This document shows positions 35,108 through 47,604 of a stretch of DNA of 64,000 bases, piece after piece. Made by a program: the position numbers and the translations under genes. The stretch is from the UHGV virus genome UHGV-0033085, one strand, 5' to 3'. Source of the DNA: a virus. The notes beneath the pieces were generated by a model. The model saw nothing but the letters and a program-made list of their open reading frames with translations. It had not been told where the DNA came from and made no database searches. Every line of letters begins with the position of its first letter. The first letter of the stretch is position 1.

Positions 35108-35124
35108 TCAAGGATTTTTTGGAC

Positions 35125-38100
35125 ATGGAACAGTTCAAGAAGAAAAAATTACCGCTTCTTATTGCCGGTGCTGGTGGCAAGAAAAGTAAAAGCTCCAGCC
35201 GTACCCCGGTTGAAGCTGATGATACTGTCAATTCTCGTGCTATGGCAGCCATCCTCGACCTTCTTGGCGAGGGGGTTATCGGTGGCCTGGTAAATGGCGC
35301 AAAGTCGATCTTCATCGACGATTTACCGATCTTGAATGAAGATGGCTCTTCCAACTTCAGCGGTATTACATGGGATTTTCGTGACGGCTCACAAGACCAG
35401 ACGCCAATGGCTGGTTTTGATTTTGTTGAAACGCCTAAGTCCGTAAATATTCAGCTTAAAAAAACACACGACGTTACGGTTTCAATCGATAACGATGAAT
35501 CTGATCGCGTTCGTGTCATCATGAAATTCCCCTCTTTACGTAGCGTTGATAAAAGCTCTGGCGATACAAATGGCACTACGGTGAAGTACAAATTCCAGAT
35601 CGCCAACGGAGACGCAACATTTTCTGATGTGGTTGCAGAAGGTGAGAAAAGCGTTGATATCACGCTAACGGCAAAGAAAACAGGCGTGTATTACCGTAGC
35701 TATGAGCTGAAACTACCTAAGCCTGGTCGTGCATACAAGGTTAGGGTGATTCGCCTTACAGATGATAACAGTAGCCAGTACCTCTACAACGACACATGGG
35801 TTGATTCCATCGGTGAGATTGTCGACACGCCAATGAACTACCCTAACTCTGCTCTTGTTGGCTTGAAGGTCAATTCAGAGCAGTTTGGTAGCACAATGCC
35901 TTCCCGTTCGTATTTGGTGCGCGGTATCAAAATCCGAGTACCGTCAAACTACAACGAATACACCAATACTTATGTCGGCGTATGGGACGGTACTTTTAAG
36001 CTGTTGTCTTCTTCAAACCCTGCGTGGATTCTCTACGATTTGCTTACCAATACTCGGTATGGTCTTGGGCAATTTGTGTCGGAATCCATGATTGACCTCG
36101 GCCAGCTCTACCAGATTGGTCGATATTGTGACGAAGAGGTCGATGATGGCTTTGGGGGTAAAGAGAAACGCTTTGCAATCAATACGCAGATCACCAGTCG
36201 ACAAGACGCATACCGATTAATTCAGGATATTGCCGGTGCATTCCGCGGCATGGTGTTTTGGGCTGGTGGCATGGTTAACATCATGCAGGATAGCCCATCA
36301 GATCCGGTAATGATGTTTACCAACTCCAACGTCAAAGATGGACTGTTTACCTATAAAGGTTCTGCGCGTAAAGATCGCCCATCCGTTGCGCTCGTAACCT
36401 ACAACAACAAGGAGGACGGTTATAAGCAAAATATCGAGTACGTTGAAGATCAGGACGCAATGCGCCGTTATGGTGAGCGTAAAACAGAAGTCGTAGCATT
36501 TGGATGTACAAGCCGAGGCCAGGCTCACCGAGTTGGTTTGTGGCTTTTGTATACCGCCAGAATGGAGTCGGATGTAATTACATTTACTGCCGGCTTAGAC
36601 GCCTCATTTCTGATGCCCGGTGAAACCGTTCTGATTCAGAACAAATATCGTGCAGGTAAACGTAACTCCGGTCGAATTGTGGAGTTTACCAAAAACAGCA
36701 TCACTCTCGATGCGCCTGTGTCGTTAGCTAAAAGCGGCAGCTTTATTCGGATATTGAATCAGGAAGGCAAAATCGTTGAACGCGATGTTCTTGAAACTGG
36801 CGAAAACATAACAAAGGTTACGTTTTCAAAAGCCCTGTCGTCAGCGGAAACGCCTGTTTTGAACGGTGTCTGGACAATTACAGAACCAGATCTCGAACCT
36901 ATGCGCGTTCGCATCGTTAACATCGCGCAGGGGGAAACGCCGGGTAGCTTTGACATCACCGCTGTTGAGAACAATCCGTCTAAATATGAGGCAATCGACA
37001 ATGGTGCAACGCTGATCCCGCAGAATACGACGGTATTGGACCCAACTTACTCCAAGCCATCTAATCTGCAAATCACTGAAGGGACTTATCTCTCAAGCCC
37101 GGGCAACCTGTCAGTAAAACTGACTGCAACATGGGAAGGAAAATCTCCAGAGTATTGGATCAGTTGGCGACGTTCTGATGAAAACAATGTATCGAACTGG
37201 CAATCGGCGCGTGTAACCGAAGAGCAATACGAAATCGTTAATGTCGCGGAGAATGGACGCTACGACTTCCAGCTGTATGCGGTTTCATTCAACGGTAAAA
37301 AAACAGAGATTATCAGTACCGTTTATCAGGTGTTGGGCACAATGACACCGCCGGATGCCCCAACGTCATTAACGGCCGTTGGAGACTATCGTAATGTGAT
37401 ACTGAATTGGGTTAATCCAGATTCGGTAGACCTTGATCACATTAATGTTTACGCATCCCAGACCAACAATCTGGATACGGCGAAACTGATCGCAGAGTCT
37501 GCAAGCACCACCTTTACACATGCTGGTCTTGGGGATAGCGAAACGTGGTATTACTGGGTTCGAGCATCGAACAAGCGAGGTATGTTAAGCCCTCCGAACT
37601 CAAACTTGGGTACAGAGGCGACAACTCGCGATGTACTGTCGTTCCTGGCTGGCAAAATTACATCTTCCGAGCTTGGTCAGGCTCTGCTTGAGGACATCAA
37701 CAGTAAAGCCTCTCAAGAAGCAGTTGACGAGTTAAATGAGCATATCAACCAGAGCGTCGAATCTTTGGAGGGGTCGGTAAACGACGTTAAGGAAGATATA
37801 GCTGAATTAGATAAGCAGTTCAGCGATAACCTCGCGAATTTTGAAATAAAATTCAACGAGCGTAGCGATGCTTTGGAGAACGCACAAACCGAGCTTAAAG
37901 GTGAGGTTTCGGCAACGATCGACAAGGTCAATGAAGCGTTTGAAAAAATTGATGCTACTGATGCTGCAATTGTTGAAATCGAAAACACCGTATCTGAACA
38001 CGATAAAGCTCTCGCTAATACAGTCGAGGCAATAAAGGCTGCAAGAGATGAAGCGGCGGCTCTTATTGCTAAGGAAAGCGAGGCTCGTGTAGAAGGTGAT

Positions 38101-39849
38101 GCCGCAAACGCTAAACAACTGGAAGTGTTGCAGTCGACGGTAGAGGAAAGTTCCGCAGCTGTTGAAGAAATGAAAAAGACGGTTGCAGAGGTCGATCGTG
38201 CCAGTGCAGAACTGACTACGAACATTGAGGCGTTAGCCAAAACAAATATTGACCTGGCTCTTCGTCAAGATGAAGACCAGCACAAGCAGATGGTCAATAA
38301 CGCGAAGATCGCAACAACACAGAAAACCTTTGCTGATGATATGTCTGCAATGGCCACGAAGGTTGAGGAAATTCGCGTAGAAATTGGCGAAGACATTAAG
38401 GCCAGTATTCTGGAAGAGTCCACCGCTCGTGCCGATGGCGATGAAGCGTTGGCAAAGCGTGTCACTCAGCTGCAATCTAAGTTTGAAGGAGATATCAGCG
38501 CGGCGATTAGTACAGAACAGGAGGCTCGTACATCTGCCGATGAAGCTTTGACGAAACAAATAACTCAGCTTGAGTCGAAAGTAAGCAACGATATTGTCGC
38601 AGCCATTAAGGAAGAGCAAGAAGCCCGAGCAACGGAAGATTCGGCTCTGGCAAGCCAGATCACCCAACTTCAGGCAAAAGTTGATGATGATATTTCTGCT
38701 GCAATACGCAGTGAGCAGGAGGCGCGTGCGAGCGGAGACTCTGCGTTAGCTAAACAAATAAACCAGCTTCAAGCAAAAGTTGACGGTGATATATCCGCCG
38801 CCATCACTCAGGAGCAGGAGGCCAGAGCAAGTGCTGACGAGGCGCTCTCACGAGAAATTAACAGCCTGCGAGCACAGACCGGAACTGATATTGCCGCAGC
38901 GGTTGCTGTAGAGACAAAGGCAAGGACTGATGCCGATAGTGCATTGTCCACTCAGATTACGTCTCTTACAGCAAAAGCTAATGATCTCGAGGCATCTCTT
39001 GCCAGAGAAACAACGGCTCGTGCTGATGGTGATACCGCTTTAACAAAAGAGGTTTCAAGTTTAAAAGCACAGACTGCGAAAGATATTAGTGCGGCCGTTG
39101 CAGTTGAAACGCAGGCTCGAACTGATGCTGACTCGGCGTTATCATCTCAGATCACCAAACTGACCTCTCAATACAAAGAGGATATTAAAGCGGCTGTAGC
39201 AACCGAAACGAAAACGCGTACAGAGCAAGATGCGGCACTGGCGACTCAAATCACAAACTTAGAGTCTCAAACAGCAGCCAACATTTCTGCGGCGGTCACA
39301 ACTGAAACGACAGCGAGAACGCAGGCAGATAATGCTCTAAGTGGGCGAATCGACACTCTGAAAGCAGAGGTGGATGGAAATACCGCGACAATTCAACAGC
39401 AGGCAACAGCTATTGCTGATACCAACAAAAAAGTGTCAACCGCGTGGACGTTGAAAATGGAGACTTCAACGAGCGGAGGGCAGAAGTATGTTGCTGGTAT
39501 TGCGCTTGGTATCGACACCACTGGCCTTTCTCAGTTTTTGGTGCAGGCTGACAGGTTTGGTTTGGTCAACTCTGTTAACGGGAAGATCACCACGCCATTT
39601 GTTATCGAAAACAGTATCGCCTATATGAATGGTGCGTATATCAAGGATGGCACAATCACCAATGCAAAAGTAGGCGATCTGCAATCTACCAATTTTGTTA
39701 GCGGTAGATCTGGATGGCGGTTCGGCAAAAATGGAACGCTTGAGATCAACGGTAATAGCGGGGGTAATGGGCGACTGGTCATAAATGGTCAGCGGATTGA
39801 CGTTTATGACGATAACAACGTCCTACGAGTAAGAATTGGCCTTCTGTAA
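35125..39849 (+). CDS. tail tip / host specificity protein (lambda J-like) with C-terminal coiled-coil repeats
   Basis: 1575-aa ORF after the I-like gene; degenerate 27-aa repeats in the C-terminal half. Confidence 0.8.
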   Translation: MEQFKKKKLPLLIAGAGGKKSKSSSRTPVEADDTVNSRAMAAILDLLGEGVIGGLVNGAKSIFIDDLPILNEDGSSNFSGITWDFRDGSQDQTPMAGFDFVETPKSVNIQLKKTHDVTVSIDNDESDRVRVIMKFPSLRSVDKSSGDTNGTTVKYKFQIANGDATFSDVVAEGEKSVDITLTAKKTGVYYRSYELKLPKPGRAYKVRVIRLTDDNSSQYLYNDTWVDSIGEIVDTPMNYPNSALVGLKVNSEQFGSTMPSRSYLVRGIKIRVPSNYNEYTNTYVGVWDGTFKLLSSSNPAWILYDLLTNTRYGLGQFVSESMIDLGQLYQIGRYCDEEVDDGFGGKEKRFAINTQITSRQDAYRLIQDIAGAFRGMVFWAGGMVNIMQDSPSDPVMMFTNSNVKDGLFTYKGSARKDRPSVALVTYNNKEDGYKQNIEYVEDQDAMRRYGERKTEVVAFGCTSRGQAHRVGLWLLYTARMESDVITFTAGLDASFLMPGETVLIQNKYRAGKRNSGRIVEFTKNSITLDAPVSLAKSGSFIRILNQEGKIVERDVLETGENITKVTFSKALSSAETPVLNGVWTITEPDLEPMRVRIVNIAQGETPGSFDITAVENNPSKYEAIDNGATLIPQNTTVLDPTYSKPSNLQITEGTYLSSPGNLSVKLTATWEGKSPEYWISWRRSDENNVSNWQSARVTEEQYEIVNVAENGRYDFQLYAVSFNGKKTEIISTVYQVLGTMTPPDAPTSLTAVGDYRNVILNWVNPDSVDLDHINVYASQTNNLDTAKLIAESASTTFTHAGLGDSETWYYWVRASNKRGMLSPPNSNLGTEATTRDVLSFLAGKITSSELGQALLEDINSKASQEAVDELNEHINQSVESLEGSVNDVKEDIAELDKQFSDNLANFEIKFNERSDALENAQTELKGEVSATIDKVNEAFEKIDATDAAIVEIENTVSEHDKALANTVEAIKAARDEAAALIAKESEARVEGDAANAKQLEVLQSTVEESSAAVEEMKKTVAEVDRASAELTTNIEALAKTNIDLALRQDEDQHKQMVNNAKIATTQKTFADDMSAMATKVEEIRVEIGEDIKASILEESTARADGDEALAKRVTQLQSKFEGDISAAISTEQEARTSADEALTKQITQLESKVSNDIVAAIKEEQEARATEDSALASQITQLQAKVDDDISAAIRSEQEARASGDSALAKQINQLQAKVDGDISAAITQEQEARASADEALSREINSLRAQTGTDIAAAVAVETKARTDADSALSTQITSLTAKANDLEASLARETTARADGDTALTKEVSSLKAQTAKDISAAVAVETQARTDADSALSSQITKLTSQYKEDIKAAVATETKTRTEQDAALATQITNLESQTAANISAAVTTETTARTQADNALSGRIDTLKAEVDGNTATIQQQATAIADTNKKVSTAWTLKMETSTSGGQKYVAGIALGIDTTGLSQFLVQADRFGLVNSVNGKITTPFVIENSIAYMNGAYIKDGTITNAKVGDLQSTNFVSGRSGWRFGKNGTLEINGNSGGNGRLVINGQRIDVYDDNNVLRVRIGLL
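38410..39380 (+). repeat. degenerate tandem 81-bp (27-aa) repeats inside the J-like gene
   Basis: About 12 repeats of the pattern ...TEQEARASADEAL..QI.QLQAKV..DISAAI... Confidence 0.6.
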
Positions 39850-39941: not shown

Positions 39942-42900
39942 ATGTGGTACAGGGAAGGTACTATCACATTTACACAGGGCAGCAATACTCTGGTTGGGGC
40001 AGGGACAGCCTGGAACGTAACAGCTAATGGTGTGTTGCCGGGGATGATCGTCATTGGCCCCGACAACAAGCTGTATGAGATCAAGCGCGTAACCAGTGAT
40101 ACGAACATTGTTCTCTCAGAACCTTATACCGGCGAAACTCAGTCTGAAGTTCCGTGCCGAATCATTACGACCTATGAAGGCGACTTAACACAGTTTAGCG
40201 CGCGCTTTACTGCACTAATGTCGCGTATGTCGGCTGATTCAAAGTCCATGCGCAGTTGGTTGACTGCTCTGGATGAGGTGACAATCGAGCGTGAAGACGG
40301 TACAGAAGTGACCGTTAAGCCGCTAATGCAGATCGTCAACGAGCACAACGAAAACGTTGAGTGGTATAAAAATAACACTGACGCGATTAATGCTGCTGGC
40401 GACAAAGCTCGTGAGGCGGCGGCCAGTGCTGCCGCAGCAGCCGAAAGCGCCAATACCGCTGGAGAAAAAGCCTCTCAAGCGTCTCAAAGTGCATCCGCTG
40501 CGGCATCTTCACAAAGTGCTGCAAGTGCGAGTGCAACTGCTGCGAAAAAATCTGAAACGAACGCAGAATCAGCACATCTAGCGGCAGCAGAATCAGCGTC
40601 TGTAGCGTCGACCAAAGCATCGGAGGCAGCAACATCTGCGTCCAGTGCCTCTGCATCTAAGGATGCAGCCAAAGCATCAGAGACTAACGCTTCATCGAGT
40701 GCAAACGCGGCTGCATCATTTGCAACAGAAGCTGAAAATTCGTCTAAGGCAGCAAAAGCGTCAGAGACAAACGCAAAAGCATCTGAAACGGCAGCCGGGC
40801 AGAGTGCATCGTCTGCAAACAGTTCGAAATCTGCGGCAGAAGCGTCAGCAAGCGCAGCCTCAGCAAGTGCGGATAGTGCTTCATCAAGTGCAACTGCGGC
40901 AGGAAAATCTGCGGATAGTGCATCGTCATCAGCGACAATAGCTACCACAAAAGCGACAGAGGCGACAAGTCAGGCTACAGCTGCTAAAAATTCAGCATCG
41001 GCAGCAAAAACCTCTGAAACAAATGCAAAGGTCTCAGAAGACAATGCGGCTTCCTCTAAGGCGGCAGCTGCTGAATCTGCAAGTTCTGCGTCTGCATCAG
41101 CCACCTCAGCATCCGCTTCAAAAGATGAGGCGACCAAGCAGGCATCAGCAGCGAAGGGTAGTGCTTCAACGGCATCCACGAAAGCAACAGAGGCGGCAGG
41201 TAGTGCGACGGCTGCATCTCAGAGCAAAGCTGCTGCTGAATCCGCTGCGACCCGTGCAGAAGCTGCCGCTGATCGTGCTGAAGAGATCGCCGGTGCAGTT
41301 GCGATGGAAGACGCAAGCCTTACCACCAAAGGTGTTGTGAAACTTAGCAGTGCTGTCGATAGCACCAGTGAATCGCTGGCCGCAACGCCAAAGGCAGTTA
41401 AAGCAGTCAATGACAATGCGAACAGCAGGGTGCCATCTAACCGAAAAATTAACGGGAAAGCACTGACTGCGGATATCACATTAACGCCGAAAGATATTGG
41501 TACTTTAAATTCAATAACGATGTCTTTCTCTGGCGGGGCCGGGTGGTTCAAACTGGCTACTGTTACAATGCCACAAGCGAGTTCCATCGTTTACATCGCA
41601 TTGATTGGTGGCGCTGGTTACAACGTCGGCTCCCCACATCAGGCAGGCATTTCAGAACTGGTTCTACGAGCAGGCAATGGAAACCCCAAAGGGATTACAG
41701 GTGCTTTGTGGAAGCGTACAGCTGTCGGATTAACGAATTTCGCCTGGATCAACACATCCGGCGATACATATGATATTTACGTTGAAATTGGCAATTATGC
41801 GACGAGTGTAAATATCCATTGGGATTGTACTGCAGATGCGTCAGTTTCTATTTATACATCGCCAACATATTCAGCGAGTAAGCCTTCCAGCGTTACCGAT
41901 GGTGTTGTTTATACGATGTATAGCACACATCAGAAACCTACACCATCAGATATTGGAGCACTGCCAACAACCGGAGGAACAGTTTCAGGTCCGTTGTCTG
42001 TTACAGGTGGATTAACTGGTTCATTGAATGGTAATGCAAGTACAGCCACGAAATTGCAGACGGCAAGATCTATCGGTGGAGTTGTTTTCGACGGTTCTGC
42101 AAATATTAACCTTCCAGGTGTAAACACTACGGGTAATCAGAACACTACTGGTAATGCTGCAACTGCTACAAAACTTCAGACTGCAAGAAAAATATCCGGT
42201 GTTCCATTTGATGGTTCTACTGATATCACTTTAACCGCTGCGCATGTTGCCGCTTTCGCAAGAAGGGCAACAGGGTCATATGCGGATGCTGATGGTGGCG
42301 TTCCCTGGAATGCCGAATCAGGCGCTTACAATGTCACCAGCTCTGGCGAAAGCTATATTCTGGTTAACTTCTATACCGGAGTCGGAAGTTGCCGCACCCT
42401 GCAGATGAAGGCACATTACAGAAATAGAGGTCTGTTCTACCGTTCTTCAAGAGACGGTTATGGTTTTGAAAGTGGTTGGGAGCAGGTTTACACGACTGGA
42501 TTTATGCCTCAGCCGGCTGATATAAACGCACCAACCGCTGCCGCTGGATGGTTAAATAGTGGTAACGGAACGGCATTTACGACTGCTCAATTTATAACTT
42601 GGCTAAATAATCAGGGGGCATTTACAAACAAACATTGGATCGCACGGTGCTCATGGACTTACGCCAACAATAATTATATAGACGACACTGGTTGCGGTAG
42701 GATCGATCTATCTGGTTCCGTGATTGAGGTGTTTAGTAATAAGGCAACAAGCCACTACACTATTCGTGTTACAACGACAACAACATCAGGTCATGGTGGT
42801 GTTAATAATGCGGAATTTATTTATGTGTACAATGGGAGTGATTATGCGCCAGGCTGGCGTCGTTCTTATAACACTAGAAACAAACCAACAGCTTCTGATG

Positions 42901-43841
42901 TAGGAGCATTACCGCTTTCAGGTGGCACATTATCTGGAGGGTTGACGTCTTCTGGTGAGATCGTTTCAAAATATGCAAATGGTTTCCGCATTGCTTACGG
43001 TAACTATGGGTTCTTTATCCGTAATGACGGCGGAAGCACATATTTCATGCTAACAGCATCAGGAGACACATTAGGTTCATGGAACGGTTTGCGACCTATT
43101 ACAATTAATAATACCAGCGGTGCTGTATCAATTGGTAATGGACTAAATGTTACTGGTGGCGTAAATGGTAGTTTGAACGGTAATGCTTCAACAGCCACAA
43201 AATTGCAGACAGCAAGGAAAATTGCTGGTGTGGCGTTTGATGGCTCTGCCGATATTACTTTGACTGCGGCTAACCTTAATGCTTATACGAAAACAGAGGT
43301 AACAAACCTTCTAAGTTCCTATGCAAGCAGATCATCACTGACAGGCTATAGTGGCAACCTGGATATTATTGCTGAAACACTGGTTGTCAAATCAGGCGGT
43401 AGTGGAGGGTTTGCTATATGGGATATTGGCACAACTACTAGCGGTGCCAATATGTACATTGATCCAAACCCAGGTATCAATACAGTTTGGCGTTCAACAT
43501 CTTCAAGGCGCTATAAAAAGGAAATTGAAACATTACAAGATCGATATGCTGATGAACTTTTGTCATTAAGACCTGTTTGGTATCGTTCAATTTGTCGAGG
43601 TGACCGAAAGGATTGGGGGTATTACGGCCTTATTGCTGAAGAGGTTGGTGAGATTGCCCCGCAATATGTCCATTGGCGTGAACCAACAAATAATGATTCT
43701 CCAGAAGATATTTCCTCAAATGGTATGGTCGCTGAAGGGGTGATGTATGAGCGTTTGGTTGTACCACTCATTCATCATATTCAGCAATTGACCAAAAGGG
43801 TTGAGGAGCTTGAAACGAAGTTAAATTCACCTAAAGAATAA
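39942..43841 (+). CDS. tail fibre protein with Ala/Ser-rich repeats and C-terminal intramolecular chaperone (peptidase S74-like)
   Basis: Low-complexity A/S/E/T/K repeat region; C-terminal ...YGLIAEEV... block typical of self-cleaving chaperone domains. Confidence 0.8.
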   Translation: MWYREGTITFTQGSNTLVGAGTAWNVTANGVLPGMIVIGPDNKLYEIKRVTSDTNIVLSEPYTGETQSEVPCRIITTYEGDLTQFSARFTALMSRMSADSKSMRSWLTALDEVTIEREDGTEVTVKPLMQIVNEHNENVEWYKNNTDAINAAGDKAREAAASAAAAAESANTAGEKASQASQSASAAASSQSAASASATAAKKSETNAESAHLAAAESASVASTKASEAATSASSASASKDAAKASETNASSSANAAASFATEAENSSKAAKASETNAKASETAAGQSASSANSSKSAAEASASAASASADSASSSATAAGKSADSASSSATIATTKATEATSQATAAKNSASAAKTSETNAKVSEDNAASSKAAAAESASSASASATSASASKDEATKQASAAKGSASTASTKATEAAGSATAASQSKAAAESAATRAEAAADRAEEIAGAVAMEDASLTTKGVVKLSSAVDSTSESLAATPKAVKAVNDNANSRVPSNRKINGKALTADITLTPKDIGTLNSITMSFSGGAGWFKLATVTMPQASSIVYIALIGGAGYNVGSPHQAGISELVLRAGNGNPKGITGALWKRTAVGLTNFAWINTSGDTYDIYVEIGNYATSVNIHWDCTADASVSIYTSPTYSASKPSSVTDGVVYTMYSTHQKPTPSDIGALPTTGGTVSGPLSVTGGLTGSLNGNASTATKLQTARSIGGVVFDGSANINLPGVNTTGNQNTTGNAATATKLQTARKISGVPFDGSTDITLTAAHVAAFARRATGSYADADGGVPWNAESGAYNVTSSGESYILVNFYTGVGSCRTLQMKAHYRNRGLFYRSSRDGYGFESGWEQVYTTGFMPQPADINAPTAAAGWLNSGNGTAFTTAQFITWLNNQGAFTNKHWIARCSWTYANNNYIDDTGCGRIDLSGSVIEVFSNKATSHYTIRVTTTTTSGHGGVNNAEFIYVYNGSDYAPGWRRSYNTRNKPTASDVGALPLSGGTLSGGLTSSGEIVSKYANGFRIAYGNYGFFIRNDGGSTYFMLTASGDTLGSWNGLRPITINNTSGAVSIGNGLNVTGGVNGSLNGNASTATKLQTARKIAGVAFDGSADITLTAANLNAYTKTEVTNLLSSYASRSSLTGYSGNLDIIAETLVVKSGGSGGFAIWDIGTTTSGANMYIDPNPGINTVWRSTSSRRYKKEIETLQDRYADELLSLRPVWYRSICRGDRKDWGYYGLIAEEVGEIAPQYVHWREPTNNDSPEDISSNGMVAEGVMYERLVVPLIHHIQQLTKRVEELETKLNSPKE
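40390..41300 (+). repeat. low-complexity Ala/Ser-rich coding repeats in tail fibre gene
   Basis: Reiterated SETNAKASE-like units; source of many spurious overlapping ORFs. Confidence 0.6.
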
Positions 43842-43853
43842 ACAACTTCAATC

Positions 43854-43881
43854 GGGGCTGGAACTAAACCAGCCCCTGCTT
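43854..43881 (+). terminator. hairpin after tail fibre gene (weak terminator)
   Basis: GGGGCTGG-N7-CCAGCCCC followed by TGCTT. Confidence 0.4.
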
Positions 43882-43901: not shown

Positions 43902-44156
43902 ATGAGCTATGGTGCACAGGTATGGTCGCCATCAAGACAGGAGATGGTCGATGCGTTGGCCCCTGTTTATTACCTCGATTATTTTACTCCCTCTGGTTCT
44001 GGAAGTAGAACATATGAGGTTGAGGCGGGATTGGGAATCGACTATTACATAATGGACGTAACCAATGGGAAATACACAAGTCTTACGGTTTCTGGAAATA
44101 CCATTTCATGGTCTGGAGCTAGTGGCAATTTAAACATATTGGTTTTTCAAAAATAA
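43902..44156 (+). CDS. hypothetical small protein
   Basis: ORF with AAGGA RBS; first of three coupled small genes after the fibre. Confidence 0.4.
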   Translation: MSYGAQVWSPSRQEMVDALAPVYYLDYFTPSGSGSRTYEVEAGLGIDYYIMDVTNGKYTSLTVSGNTISWSGASGNLNILVFQK

Positions 44157-44458
44157 TGTACGGAAGCAAGATATATCGATCTGACGGGAAGGTCTGGATG
44201 TCTCCTTCTTTGTCTCCTATCGTTTTTCAGAGAAAGCAGGTTGTTTCTTTGTCTGGCGGGACAGAGTTTAACACCCAAATATCTCCAGATCGTTCACCGA
44301 TGATTTTTGTTGCCTATTCGAAAGCTGTTTCATTAATAGCCAACAGAATAGTGCGTAACAACCAGGTGATTTACAGTTTCGGAGGTCAGGGTAGCGACTC
44401 TAGTGCCACGATATACGTATTTTCGAAAGGTATAGCCAAAAAGAAACTTGGGGCATGA
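44156..44458 (+). CDS. hypothetical small protein
   Basis: ORF; start overlaps upstream stop. Confidence 0.4.
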   Translation: MYGSKIYRSDGKVWMSPSLSPIVFQRKQVVSLSGGTEFNTQISPDRSPMIFVAYSKAVSLIANRIVRNNQVIYSFGGQGSDSSATIYVFSKGIAKKKLGA

Positions 44459-44763
44459 GTTTTTTCAATGCGCGAGGAGAGGAGATCTATAATACGGCAA
44501 ATATCCCACTTTCATTTACCTTTCTTAATAATACGGAGTGGAACAGTTCTGGAGGGCATGTTTTTGATTACCCGCCAGCGATAATCCCAACATATGCAAA
44601 TGTGTTCGCGGTTCCAGTACCGGGCGGGGCCATGACAATGGTTTATGGATATGCGGCATATGGAAATACTGTTAGTTCCATATTCGTAAACCAACTTAAT
44701 GGCGGCCATAGTTTTAGCGTAAATGGCAGAGTACCGGTAATAAATAGAAATCTGTATAACTGA
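44455..44763 (+). CDS. hypothetical small protein
   Basis: ORF; ATGA overlap with upstream gene. Confidence 0.4.
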   Translation: MSFFNARGEEIYNTANIPLSFTFLNNTEWNSSGGHVFDYPPAIIPTYANVFAVPVPGGAMTMVYGYAAYGNTVSSIFVNQLNGGHSFSVNGRVPVINRNLYN

Positions 44764-44773
44764 TGAGTAAACG

Positions 44774-45004
44774 ATGAAAAGATTATTTCTAACAATAGCT
44801 GTTGTTCTCTCTCTTACTGGCTGTCAGAAATTGCCGACACCCATATGTTATGGTGAGGCTATCATTGGTGGACAGGAGACAGTCATACCTATATATGCTG
44901 TTAAAAAGGTTAACGGCTATACCTTATACAAAGCGGGTAGCATCTATAACTGGCGATGGGTTGGAGTAGGTGCTTTCTCATCAGTGCGTTGCAATGCTGA
45001 ATGA
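44774..45004 (+). CDS. small lipoprotein
   Basis: Signal peptide with lipobox LSLTGC; 76 aa. Confidence 0.55.
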   Translation: MKRLFLTIAVVLSLTGCQKLPTPICYGEAIIGGQETVIPIYAVKKVNGYTLYKAGSIYNWRWVGVGAFSSVRCNAE

Positions 45005-45014: not shown

Positions 45015-45085
45015 CACACCTACAACAAAAGGGTGAAATGTGATATAAATCCGCCATCCCGATTTGACTTTTCATGGAGGAAAAC

Positions 45086-45409
45086 ATGTCGAACGAGATG
45101 GCGGGCGTTACAACAGAGCAAGTTGAGCGTATTGCCGCGATCGTTGCTCGGGAGGTTGTTGGCAAATTAGGTAAAGAGCTACGTGAAGAAATTGGCCAGG
45201 AGGTCAACGACCAGCTCAAAACCTACTTTGGCGATATGACGCCTTCGCAACACAGCATTCAGCACTCCAACCTGGACAAACTACTTAATCGGCTAGACGC
45301 CATCTCCAGCGGGTTCTTTGGCGGCATTATCTCAAAGATAACGTCGTTCCTGATTACCGCGCTGCTGCTGGGTCTGGCCGCTTATGGCGTGAAGAATGGA
45401 CTGCAATAA
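45086..45409 (+). CDS. tail-anchored membrane protein, possible holin
   Basis: ORF track 45074..45409; ATG 45086 with GGAGGA RBS; single C-terminal TM helix. Confidence 0.35.
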   Translation: MSNEMAGVTTEQVERIAAIVAREVVGKLGKELREEIGQEVNDQLKTYFGDMTPSQHSIQHSNLDKLLNRLDAISSGFFGGIISKITSFLITALLLGLAAYGVKNGLQ

Positions 45410-45422
45410 CAGGAGATCAAGG

Positions 45423-46115
45423 ATGAAAACTCCGAGAGGCATTCGTAATAACAACCCTGGCAACCTCGACAAAGGTTCGCCGTGGCAGGGGCTAATCGAC
45501 AACCCTGCCGAACCGCGCTTTTGCACGTTTAAAGACCCTGTTTGGGGGATTCGTGCGCTGGCGGTGACTCTAATTACCTACCACGATAAACGTCGCGCAA
45601 AAGACGGCACAAGTATCGATACCATTCGTGAAGTTATTGAACGCTGGGCACCGCCGAATGAAAACAATACTGACGCCTACATTAATGAGGTGTCTAAAGC
45701 CGTTGGTGTAACCGCAGACATGATCATCGATCTGCATGATTACGACATCCTTCGACCTTTGGTTGAGGCAATCATTCGCCACGAGAATGGCCGAGGCCCG
45801 CTAAAAACGCTGAACACCTGGTATGCGGCAGAAGTTATTGAGGAAGGTCTGCGTCGAGCTGGCGTTGTTAAGCCGGTGAAAACCGTGAAGGCTGTTCCTG
45901 TAACTAAAGAAACCGCAGGCGCAACTGTTACAGCAGGTATTGGTCTGGCGCAGCTGGCCGATGTTATGCCGCAGGTTTCCGCTGCTATGGATAAAGCACA
46001 AGGTCATATCTCTAGCGGGGATACAGTACGCATCATCTTCGGTATTGCCACTATTGTTGTGGCAGGATTCATTGCCTGGTCGCAGGTAAGAAAACACCAG
46101 AAAGGGATGGTCTAA
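45423..46115 (+). CDS. membrane-anchored protein, possible endolysin
   Basis: ORF track 45396..46115; ATG 45423 with AGGAG RBS; C-terminal TM helix; role inferred from position only. Confidence 0.35.
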   Translation: MKTPRGIRNNNPGNLDKGSPWQGLIDNPAEPRFCTFKDPVWGIRALAVTLITYHDKRRAKDGTSIDTIREVIERWAPPNENNTDAYINEVSKAVGVTADMIIDLHDYDILRPLVEAIIRHENGRGPLKTLNTWYAAEVIEEGLRRAGVVKPVKTVKAVPVTKETAGATVTAGIGLAQLADVMPQVSAAMDKAQGHISSGDTVRIIFGIATIVVAGFIAWSQVRKHQKGMV

Positions 46116-46116
46116 T

Positions 46117-46368
46117 ATGCTAGGCAGCCTGATGACAAAGCTAAAAGTTGCTTTGATTACGCTGGCTGCCGTTCTTTTCGTTCTTGTCGGCGCTTACACG
46201 ATGGGCGGGAATGCGGCGCGACGAGCAATGGAAGAGAAGGCAAAACAGGAAGACAGAAAACGACTTCAAAGCACAGTGGAAGTGGTGAATGAGACGAGCA
46301 ATAAAATACGTCAGAAAGATGCTTCTGCCGTTCATCGTGAGTTGTATGATAAGTGGGTGCGTCATTAA
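46117..46368 (+). CDS. i-spanin-like protein (Rz-like)
   Basis: N-terminal TM helix then charged helical region. Confidence 0.45.
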   Translation: MLGSLMTKLKVALITLAAVLFVLVGAYTMGGNAARRAMEEKAKQEDRKRLQSTVEVVNETSNKIRQKDASAVHRELYDKWVRH

Positions 46369-46504
46369 ACCACAAACAGCCAGCGTGTTGTTCTGCGATG
46401 GGGCTGAGCCTATCTATATCAGCAATAATGATGTAATGACTGAAGAAACCGAACGCCAAATCCTTTTTCACAATACGATGGGAGAGAGGGTTTGTGGTTG
46501 GTGA
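46289..46504 (+). CDS. o-spanin-like lipoprotein (Rz1-like), out of frame with upstream gene
   Basis: Lipobox MISGC; overlaps the 3-prime end of the Rz-like gene; true start may be ATG 46319. Confidence 0.45.
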   Translation: MRRAIKYVRKMLLPFIVSCMISGCVIKPQTASVLFCDGAEPIYISNNDVMTEETERQILFHNTMGERVCGW

Positions 46505-46536: not shown

Positions 46537-47058
46537 TTATTCTTCGAACAATTTTTCGATAGATTTTGTAGGATAGAACAAAGAACGCTCGTTGTTACCA
46601 ACCAGCTGGATAAAGTCTAAACTTTTATAAAACGCCTTGGCTTTGTCATTTAACGCCTCAACGAAAAGTCCATGAATGCCTACAGCAAGAGATGCATTGT
46701 ACACAACGCGCATTGCATGTGTTACAAGCATTGAGCCAAATCCTTGACCTTGAAGGGACTTGTCCAAAGCCAGCCTACCCAAAGTAACACTTGGAACATT
46801 CCGATAAGGTACCTTCTTTTGCTGGCTTCTTGAAGGTAAGGACTCCTTTTCAAAGCAGCTACCTGACAAAGTGTAATACCCTAACACTTTTGGTCTGCCT
46901 TCTTTCGTGCAGAGCACATAAGCGCGAAGAATTTTTCCCTCATGCTGCCTTTTTAAGTGGTTGGTTAAAAAGGCATTTAGTGATTCTTCACCGCAATCAA
47001 AACCATTCAAATCATAATCTTTCTCTCCAGAGAAAATTTCTATCTTTATATTATCCAC
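46537..47058 (-). CDS. GNAT-family toxin (TacT-like)
   Basis: GNAT motifs; paired with DUF1778-like antitoxin. Confidence 0.8.
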   Translation of the reverse strand: MDNIKIEIFSGEKDYDLNGFDCGEESLNAFLTNHLKRQHEGKILRAYVLCTKEGRPKVLGYYTLSGSCFEKESLPSRSQQKKVPYRNVPSVTLGRLALDKSLQGQGFGSMLVTHAMRVVYNASLAVGIHGLFVEALNDKAKAFYKSLDFIQLVGNNERSLFYPTKSIEKLFEE

Positions 47059-47065
47059 GAGTAAA

Positions 47066-47335
47066 CTACTCCATGCTTTTCAGACGATCAGCAGCTCGTT
47101 TCAGCTTGTCGTTCGGTGCCGGAGGATTGCTTATAGCGTCCATAACCAGATTCCAGGATTCTTCATTCAGAACTAGTCTACGGTGTTGCTCTATAACTTT
47201 CACGGCACGTTCAGATGCACTGCTAACCATAAACTGAGTAATGCTCTGGTTAGACATTGCGGCAGCTTCCTCGATGATGCTTTTATCGTCATCGGTTAAT
47301 CTCAAATCGATGCGCTGCTTTTTTAGTGCTGACAT
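47066..47335 (-). CDS. DUF1778-type antitoxin (TacA-like)
   Basis: N-terminal RIDLRLTDDDK...SITQFMVSSA motif; ORF track 47066..47374, ATG 47335 has AGGAGG RBS. Confidence 0.8.
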   Translation of the reverse strand: MSALKKQRIDLRLTDDDKSIIEEAAAMSNQSITQFMVSSASERAVKVIEQHRRLVLNEESWNLVMDAISNPPAPNDKLKRAADRLKSME

Positions 47336-47604
47336 GTATTCCTCCTGATGGCCGTGATGTAGGAAGGCCATCAATCTCCTCTGTTCAAACTGAGTTTTCG
47401 ACTCAAAAATTACTTTAAAAGGCTATAGCCCATTACGTGTGCATTATCAAATTGTGTACGGCATATCACCGTACTTGTAATATAGAGGTCATTGTTACTT
47501 TTTTCAACAGACAAATACAAGCTATGTTTGCCAATTGTTAATCACAACCTACCATTTAACCTTTACACCGCAGCCGTAGGCATTTAGGCTATATCACATA
47601 TAAG

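Follow-up and report, generated by a model that had tools for sequence, protein, structure and literature searches.

The closest described systems are the three-gene cassettes that lie next to the gene of the central tail-tip protein J in phages N15, T1 and KarlBarth. In N15, gp22, gp23 and Cor (gp24), which belong to the protein families PHROG 557, 425 and 1119, stand in this order beside a J protein that has a tip of the Pfam PF09327 type and no Ig-like domain. T1 has the same three families in the same order next to J (gp32, gp31 and Cor, gp30), and the FhuA-dependent Dhillonvirus KarlBarth has J, a gp22-like gene, a gp23-like gene and cor in succession (bas17_0025-0027). It has been argued in the BASEL papers that the locus downstream of gpJ encodes dedicated receptor-binding proteins (RBPs) with cognate exclusion proteins (PMC8594841; bioRxiv 10.64898/2026.04.02.716166), and the 'small Ig-like' (~11 kDa) proteins of PHROG 557 and the 'hand-like' (~21 kDa) proteins of PHROG 425 have been proposed to cap Ig-less tail spikes (PMC12309495). 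On this literature basis, which consists of genomic correlation and modelling, members of both families are candidate virion receptor-binding proteins. The exclusion mechanisms of the lipoproteins Llp and Rtp45 have been solved (PMC9586334; bioRxiv 10.1101/2025.07.07.663478), and Cor and Llp have been placed in one structural family (bioRxiv 10.64898/2026.03.26.714494).

We analysed a locus of this kind in a 64-kb stretch of DNA (hereafter the window) from an E. coli phage-plasmid of the SSU5-like group. The locus is part of the late operon, which encodes, from left to right, a J-like tip protein, a side fibre, four small ORFs, holin, endolysin and Rz/Rz1, followed by a GNAT-toxin/antitoxin pair and a ParA-like gene:

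35119..39849, plus strand: J-like protein of the central tail tip (1576 aa), on which the small-gene module is proposed to dock
39942..43841, plus strand: long side tail fibre (1299 aa), which separates J from the module and is not counted as part of it
43854..43876, plus strand: perfect 8-bp GC-rich hairpin (GGGGCTGG / CCAGCCCC, loop of 7 nt), downstream of the fibre stop codon and ahead of the first small gene
43902..44156, plus strand: gp22-like protein, 84 aa, PHROG 557
44156..44458, plus strand: gp23-like protein, N-terminal half, 100 aa (residues 1-96 plus 4 out-of-frame residues), PHROG 425
44438..44442, plus strand: A5 run, site of a 1-bp deletion (A6 in relatives, from alignments with ij001 p2, SSU5 and pTLYA-2)
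44455..44763, plus strand: gp23-like protein, C-terminal half, 102 aa (residues 101-202), PHROG 425
44774..45004, plus strand: cor, phage exclusion lipoprotein, 76 aa (MKRLFLTIAVVLSLTGC...), with lipobox LTGC, Cys17, Gln at +2 and Cys25/Cys73
45074-45409: holin
45396-46115: endolysin
46117-46368: Rz
46289-46504: Rz1 lipoprotein embedded in Rz, lipobox ISGC
46537-47374, minus strand: GNAT acetyltransferase toxin and TacA-like RHH antitoxin, annotated as KacT-type in phage Cyrano
47654-48322: ParA/MipZ-like partition ATPase, adjoining the GNAT toxin/antitoxin pair

The cassette is built like the post-J cassette of N15, T1, phi80/HK022-type and Dhillonvirus phages, and the Cor proteins of N15, T1 and KarlBarth share with that of the window the lipobox and two conserved cysteines. 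In contrast to these three phages, J and the gp22-like/gp23-like pair are separated in the window by a side-fibre gene of 3.9 kb, the gp23-like gene is split, and the sequences are divergent (23-28% identity for the pair and 28-43% for Cor). The window cor is co-oriented with the pair and begins 10 nt downstream of it, whereas the gap is 111 nt in N15 and cor is on the opposite strand in T1 and KarlBarth. In the Warwickvirus tonijn, the pair is convergent with J. We consider it likely that the cassette provides a tip receptor-binding pair for an N15-type J together with its cognate exclusion lipoprotein, probably directed at FhuA; the occurrence of the same trio next to J in T1 and N15 argues for this reading.

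The J-like protein lacks the lambda-type Ig-like receptor-binding domain and instead carries an N15 gp21-type C-terminus, identified by Pfam PF09327 (Phage_Tail_Tip) over residues 1424-1558 with E 1e-41, and over its final ~200 aa it shares 32% identity with the terminal part of N15 gp21. Pfam also detects FNIII-A_GpJ and Phage-tail_3 domains, and the match to the NCBIfam model lambda_TipJ stays under the cut-off. Between the FN3 region and the PF09327 tip, residues ~860-1420 form a stretch of ~560 residues of coiled-coil-like repeats ('DISAAI..EQEAR..AD.AL..QI..L'), which make this J far longer than N15 gp21; TRF found no DNA-level tandem repeat in this region. The side fibre matches Pfam Gp34_trimer (E 1e-29) and the intramolecular chaperone Peptidase_S74 (24.8 bits, cut-off 22). 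It is 1299 aa long here, as against 1432 aa in a neighbour of 99.5% identity (the two differ in frame, in the distal repeats), and contains a long Ala/Ser-rich stretch that aligns poorly between relatives. The hairpin downstream of the fibre gene is not followed by a T-run and was not called by the terminator scan; it may be an RNA-stability or attenuation element.

The first-pass annotation of this locus had drawn three coupled small ORFs of 84, 100 and 102 aa and a 76-aa lipoprotein. All four are present where it placed them, with overlaps of TAATG between ORF1 and ORF2 and of ATGA between ORF2 and ORF3. Its count of three small genes before the lipoprotein was mistaken, as the ORFs of 100 and 102 aa belong together as the halves of a single gene. 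This gene is one uninterrupted 202-aa ORF, with A6 in place of the A5 of the window, both in SSU5 and in near-identical plasmids; the start of the 102-aa ORF is an internal Met codon of the intact gene, and its ATG overlaps the new upstream stop codon. All gp23-like homologues that were aligned (29 of 29) are single proteins of ~200-230 aa; the window copy does not encode a single polypeptide. In the predicted structure, the break falls into the loop between two beta domains, i.e. into the inter-domain linker.

A possible explanation of the split is a homopolymer sequencing or assembly error, with a true gene of intact 202 aa. Only one A of an A5/A6 run is concerned, ~99% of contigs with the gp23-like gene have an intact copy, and the samples that have the deletion in common belong to a single study. 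The intact 202-aa sequence occurs in the protein collection on 547 contigs and variants of it on 199 and 20 more, as compared with 7 contigs for the split 100-aa product and 19 for the 102-aa product. However, two metagenome scaffolds, independent of each other and derived from different samples, have the same A5 deletion, one of them with N gaps as in read-pair-joined scaffolds, and the 100-aa product recurs on the above-mentioned 7 contigs. Furthermore, in the comparison of the 64-kb window with pTLYA-2, the A5 run is the sole uncompensated 1-bp indel inside a coding region, the others located being intergenic, which is not the pattern of error-prone reads. Since the deletion recurs in two scaffolds and is the only indel of its kind, it is probably real, and we regard an error as rather unlikely. 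A role of the A-run as a phase-variation switch or slippage site was considered and set aside: A5/A6 is short and the split form makes up ~1% of contigs.

The small ORFs are real genes rather than chance ORFs, as each of them matches a phage protein family and their divergence from SSU5 points to purifying selection (synonymous change saturated, with pS of 0.76-0.81, and pN/pS of 0.28, 0.21 and 0.32 for the three genes). PGAP places the start of the gp23-like gene at Met15 (window 44156-44200), which gives a product of 188 aa. Since the N-terminal motif conserved in the family (Y/W-G...G..W.SP) starts at the first Met, the 202-aa form is probably the true product.

The 84-aa protein belongs to PHROG 557 (E 1.3e-24), the family of N15 gp22 and T1 gp32, and is 28% identical to N15 gp22. 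The two halves of the gp23-like protein match PHROG 425, the family of N15 gp23 and T1 gp31, at profile positions 3-102 (E 1e-22) and 107-223 (E 3e-18) of 224, so that the two ORFs together account for the whole profile. Conversely, a profile made from the window protein's own family, with N15, T1 and KarlBarth left out, recovered over their full length N15 gp23 (E 2e-20), KarlBarth bas17_0026 (E 2e-20) and T1 gp31 (E 1e-15), even though the identity to N15 gp23 is only ~23%. The single-sequence, word-indexed protein search yielded near-identical proteins only, and an exhaustive search and an alignment query were needed to go beyond them. A 1611-aa 'homologue' with 10 matched stretches (P0055) was discarded as a low-complexity perfect repeat. 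An hhalign comparison (probability 96.4%, E 1.4e-9, 87 columns) further showed the gp22-like family to be homologous to the gp23-like protein's N-terminal half; the two halves of the gp23-like protein have only a short N-terminal motif in common. The structural model of the gp23-like protein is a soluble all-beta globule with the predicted fold of a solved tip RBP that binds LptD. This virion RBP is the only strong structural relative of the model; sequence searches of the PDB gave no real matches for the module proteins.

By analogy with N15, T1 and KarlBarth, the upstream genes are best read as a J-tip receptor-binding pair and not as fibre helpers, which would place their products in the virion and in contact with a receptor. 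The PHROG 557 partner is encoded beside the gp23-like gene, and J is Ig-less with a PF09327 tip, though the fibre gene intervenes. The first-pass annotation had suggested fibre accessory or assembly proteins, i.e. chaperones or adhesins of the adjacent long fibre. The position of the ORFs directly downstream of the fibre gene and their translational coupling are consistent with such a function, and in SSU5 an extra gp38-like adhesin gene occupies the corresponding place, between the fibre and the pair. Several observations point away from it, nevertheless. Fibre chaperones are not needed, because the side fibre bears the S74 intramolecular chaperone of its own; homologues of the pair follow J, not a side fibre, in N15, T1, KarlBarth and the Stx2-converting phage 86; Cyrano has a similar fibre without such genes beside it; and the modelled fold of the larger protein is that of a tip RBP. 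No match to fibre-assembly or adhesin families was found for the upstream ORFs in Pfam, NCBIfam or PHROGs, Pfam giving nothing but one sub-threshold chance match for the three, and none of the three proteins matched PADLOC defence-system models. A fibre-accessory role thus appears highly unlikely.

According to another explanation, the products of the pair would be host-conversion (moron) proteins of the membrane, acting with Cor in the cell envelope. Such a role is implied by their database names, 'outer membrane protein' and 'membrane associated protein'; the PHROG category of family 425 is 'moron, auxiliary metabolic gene and host takeover', and the pair lies among non-structural genes in Cyrano and outside the J operon in tonijn. 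These names, which go back to the uncharacterised N15 annotation, look unfounded, because neither sequence shows a signal peptide, a lipobox or a transmembrane (hydrophobic) segment. The computed membrane affinity of homologues is negligible (PMC12309495), and the soluble globule of the model, with a virion RBP as its one strong structural relative, also speaks against an envelope location. We consider a moron function of the pair very improbable, and only slightly less so than that of a fibre accessory.

The 76-aa lipoprotein is a member of the Cor family, an identity already present in public annotation, as RefSeq calls the identical protein Cor. In the region of the plasmid pTLYA-2 record NZ_CP137164.1 (19524-19847), the cor ORF is present but unannotated, whereas other RefSeq records annotate it. 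The homology search that had been proposed as a check returned the NCBIfam equivalog NF047972 with 79.5 bits (cut-off 31; residues 1-74 on profile positions 1-77 of 78) and PHROG 1119 with E 7.8e-30; the protein is 42% identical to N15 Cor and 28-43% identical to the tested Cor proteins. The lipobox LTGC was found as claimed. The N-terminus, read directly from the sequence, consists of MKR, a hydrophobic stretch, L-T-G-C17 and Gln18, from which lipidation is predicted, and the Pfam model LPAM_1 scores 17.3 bits, under its cut-off of 20. According to the Lol rule, Gln (and not Asp) at +2 predicts sorting to the outer membrane. C25 and C73, a pair corresponding to the disulphide shared with Llp, are invariant in five reference Cor proteins and in 50 homologues, and the lipobox Cys is invariant in the 50 homologues. 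T5 Llp has no detectable sequence match to the window Cor; the predicted structure is an Llp-like small beta fold whose best match is T5 Llp bound to FhuA. Matches of Cor to 'Pizza' designed-repeat PDB entries are spurious, as no stretch passes alone. The proposal of a lipoprotein acting like Cor or Llp next to receptor-binding genes has thus held up in family membership, conserved cysteines and predicted fold. Its mechanistic part, the masking of the receptor from outside, does not agree with the solved Llp, which closes the receptor allosterically from inside.

The promoter/terminator scan found two promoter-like sites in the region, with 3.9 expected; near cor, neither a promoter-like site nor a terminator exceeded chance, and TRF detected no tandem repeats. 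As cor starts 10 nt after the preceding stop codon and has no promoter-like site above chance, it looks co-transcribed with the late genes, which would result in 'lytic conversion' of the Llp type. Elsewhere, cor appears to move independently of the pair: in the Stx2-converting phage 86, a Cor homologue 58% identical to that of the window follows a collagen-like long fibre and an unrelated 181-aa ORF, and a separate gp22-like/gp23-like pair stands after the tip fibre. The gene adjacent to cor in this phage (orf22) was tested as a gp23-like candidate and is not gp23-like.

From these comparisons, the following mechanism may be proposed. The gp22-like and gp23-like proteins would be virion components docking on the C-terminal tip of the J trimer, which is Ig-less and of the N15 type, the former as an accessory or adaptor and the latter by its conserved N-terminal domain, the paralogue of the gp22-like protein. 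The more variable C-terminal domain of the gp23-like protein would contact an outer-membrane beta-barrel receptor, probably FhuA, once the long side fibre has bound the cell surface. The cor product, a lipoprotein with a predicted outer-membrane sorting signal, would, as in the FhuA-Llp complex, sit in the inner leaflet of the outer membrane, bind the periplasmic face of the receptor and fold its extracellular loops into a state that the RBP cannot bind. Phages using the same receptor would thereby be blocked, and progeny would not be lost on debris. In the lineage with the 1-bp deletion, either the phage would be adsorption-defective by this route and keep an intact cor, or the two translationally coupled halves would still assemble.

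The assignment to FhuA relies on the occurrence of Cor homologues in FhuA-dependent phages. For the BASEL phages that appeared in a sampled tblastn list of Cor homologues (Bas05, Bas15, Bas16 and Bas17), the measured receptor is FhuA in each case (4/4), and, together with T1 and N15, every phage of known receptor that was found with a Cor homologue uses FhuA. With the same architecture and mechanism, it is also conceivable that a different outer-membrane protein, e.g. another TonB-dependent transporter, and not FhuA is the target of the RBP and of Cor. The gp23-like protein is just 23-31% identical to its homologues in FhuA phages, the best structural match of its model binds LptD, and the Cor identities to tested proteins are likewise low (28-43%). 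A PHROG 425 homologue in Stx phages has been associated with BamA and not FhuA (PMC12309495), so that the RBP family alone does not name the receptor, and Llp-like exclusion is expected for many TonB-dependent transporters (PMC9586334). On the other hand, Cor scores far over the curated equivalog cut-off, the phages with Cor homologues and known receptors are without exception FhuA users, and LptD-type loci have a different exclusion lipoprotein (bioRxiv 10.1101/2025.07.07.663478): that of Oekolampad (Bas18) is Rtp45, which acts on LptDE and belongs to a family different from Cor, and the RBP of this LptD-dependent phage has 13% identity to the gp23-like protein and no sequence-level match. 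The RBP of T5, pb5, is another and larger protein, and the tail tip that carries it is also different. A receptor other than FhuA is, in our opinion, unlikely, to about the same degree as a sequencing error in the gp23-like gene. Our literature search found no report linking SSU5-like elements to FhuA. The published receptor work on SSU5 concerns the LPS core only, which is reported to be the receptor bound via the fibre adhesin (cited in PMC12312913); a need for the LPS core is compatible with two-step adsorption and says nothing on FhuA.

The Salmonella phage SSU5 contains the direct counterpart of the module, SSU5_023, 024 and 025, in the same order and the same position before the holin gene, with protein identities to the window of 69%, 75% and 59%, respectively; SSU5_025 is annotated as Cor-like and SSU5_024 is intact. 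In the SSU5-like phage Cyrano, by contrast, the equivalent fibre is directly followed by the holin gene, and its single pair (CYRAN_88/89) is located ~55 kb away among non-structural genes, with no adjacent cor. SSU5, too, has one gp22-like/gp23-like pair. The pair of an SSU5-like element is found at either of two positions, behind the fibre and with cor or ~55 kb off and without it, at about equal frequencies: among plasmids, the Cyrano-type gp23-like gene was counted ~120 times and the window/SSU5-type ~124 times, nearly always one per plasmid. The gp23-like gene was found at 257 places in 246 plasmid records, again nearly always in single copy, and one copy per element fits a structural role of its product.

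We considered co-variation of the J tip with the RBP type, which was refuted by the comparison with Cyrano, as the J tips are 99% identical and the gp23-like proteins only 26%. This, together with the odd location of the pair in Cyrano, weakens the argument for a structural role. Also against a receptor-binding pair with a cognate Cor stand the 3.9-kb fibre gene that separates the pair from J, the frameshift in the RBP gene of the window, and the lack of a promoter-like site of cor's own, so that its expression during the plasmid state is not apparent. Docking of divergent gp23-like proteins on one J tip could be due to the conserved N-terminal motif. A further, speculative extension would be that the split is tolerated: three small proteins would be made, the N-type paralogues capping the threefold J tip and breaking its symmetry and the free C-domain binding the receptor, as a natural two-chain RBP, in SSU5-like elements that are FhuA-dependent and swap whole RBP pairs between two sites with one J tip. 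We regard this combined scenario as improbable, if a little less so than a moron function of the pair.

At the DNA level, the small-gene module is known from plasmids only. In a megablast search of phage genomes with the 1.3-kb region, the holin flank alone matched; at the same level, 249 plasmids carried the region, with a coverage of 80% or more in 72 cases. Among 5426 complete E. coli genomes, 206 have part of the region and 66 the whole, always on plasmids and never on the chromosome. SSU5-like phage-plasmids are common elements, and some members of the group carry resistance genes (PMC9600943). If Cor is active, FhuA-dependent traits of the host would change, including sensitivity to T1-, T5- and phi80-like phages and ferrichrome uptake. 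Sensitivity to colicin M, microcin J25 and albomycin, which also depends on FhuA, would then change likewise. The cassette further predicts the terminal receptor, and hence the host range, of SSU5-like elements, and the 'hypothetical proteins' beside cor deserve annotation as RBPs.

The reading of the lipoprotein was right, yet the cassette is of a known kind and the feature an ordinary one; nothing is conceptually new, and the N15/T1 cassette is extended to another phage group. Four points are modestly new: the modelled fold that links PHROG 425 to the solved LptD RBP, the apparent paralogy between the gp22-like protein and the N-terminal domain of the gp23-like protein, the two alternative RBP sites in SSU5-like elements with one J tip, and a rare lineage with an intact cor and an RBP gene that is interrupted at a domain boundary.

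Directly 3' of cor, the lysis cassette is complete (45074-46504), and its Rz1 is a second small lipoprotein near the Cor lipoprotein that had been flagged in the first-pass annotation. The plasmid-maintenance genes (GNAT toxin/antitoxin and ParA/MipZ-like) abut these lysis genes.
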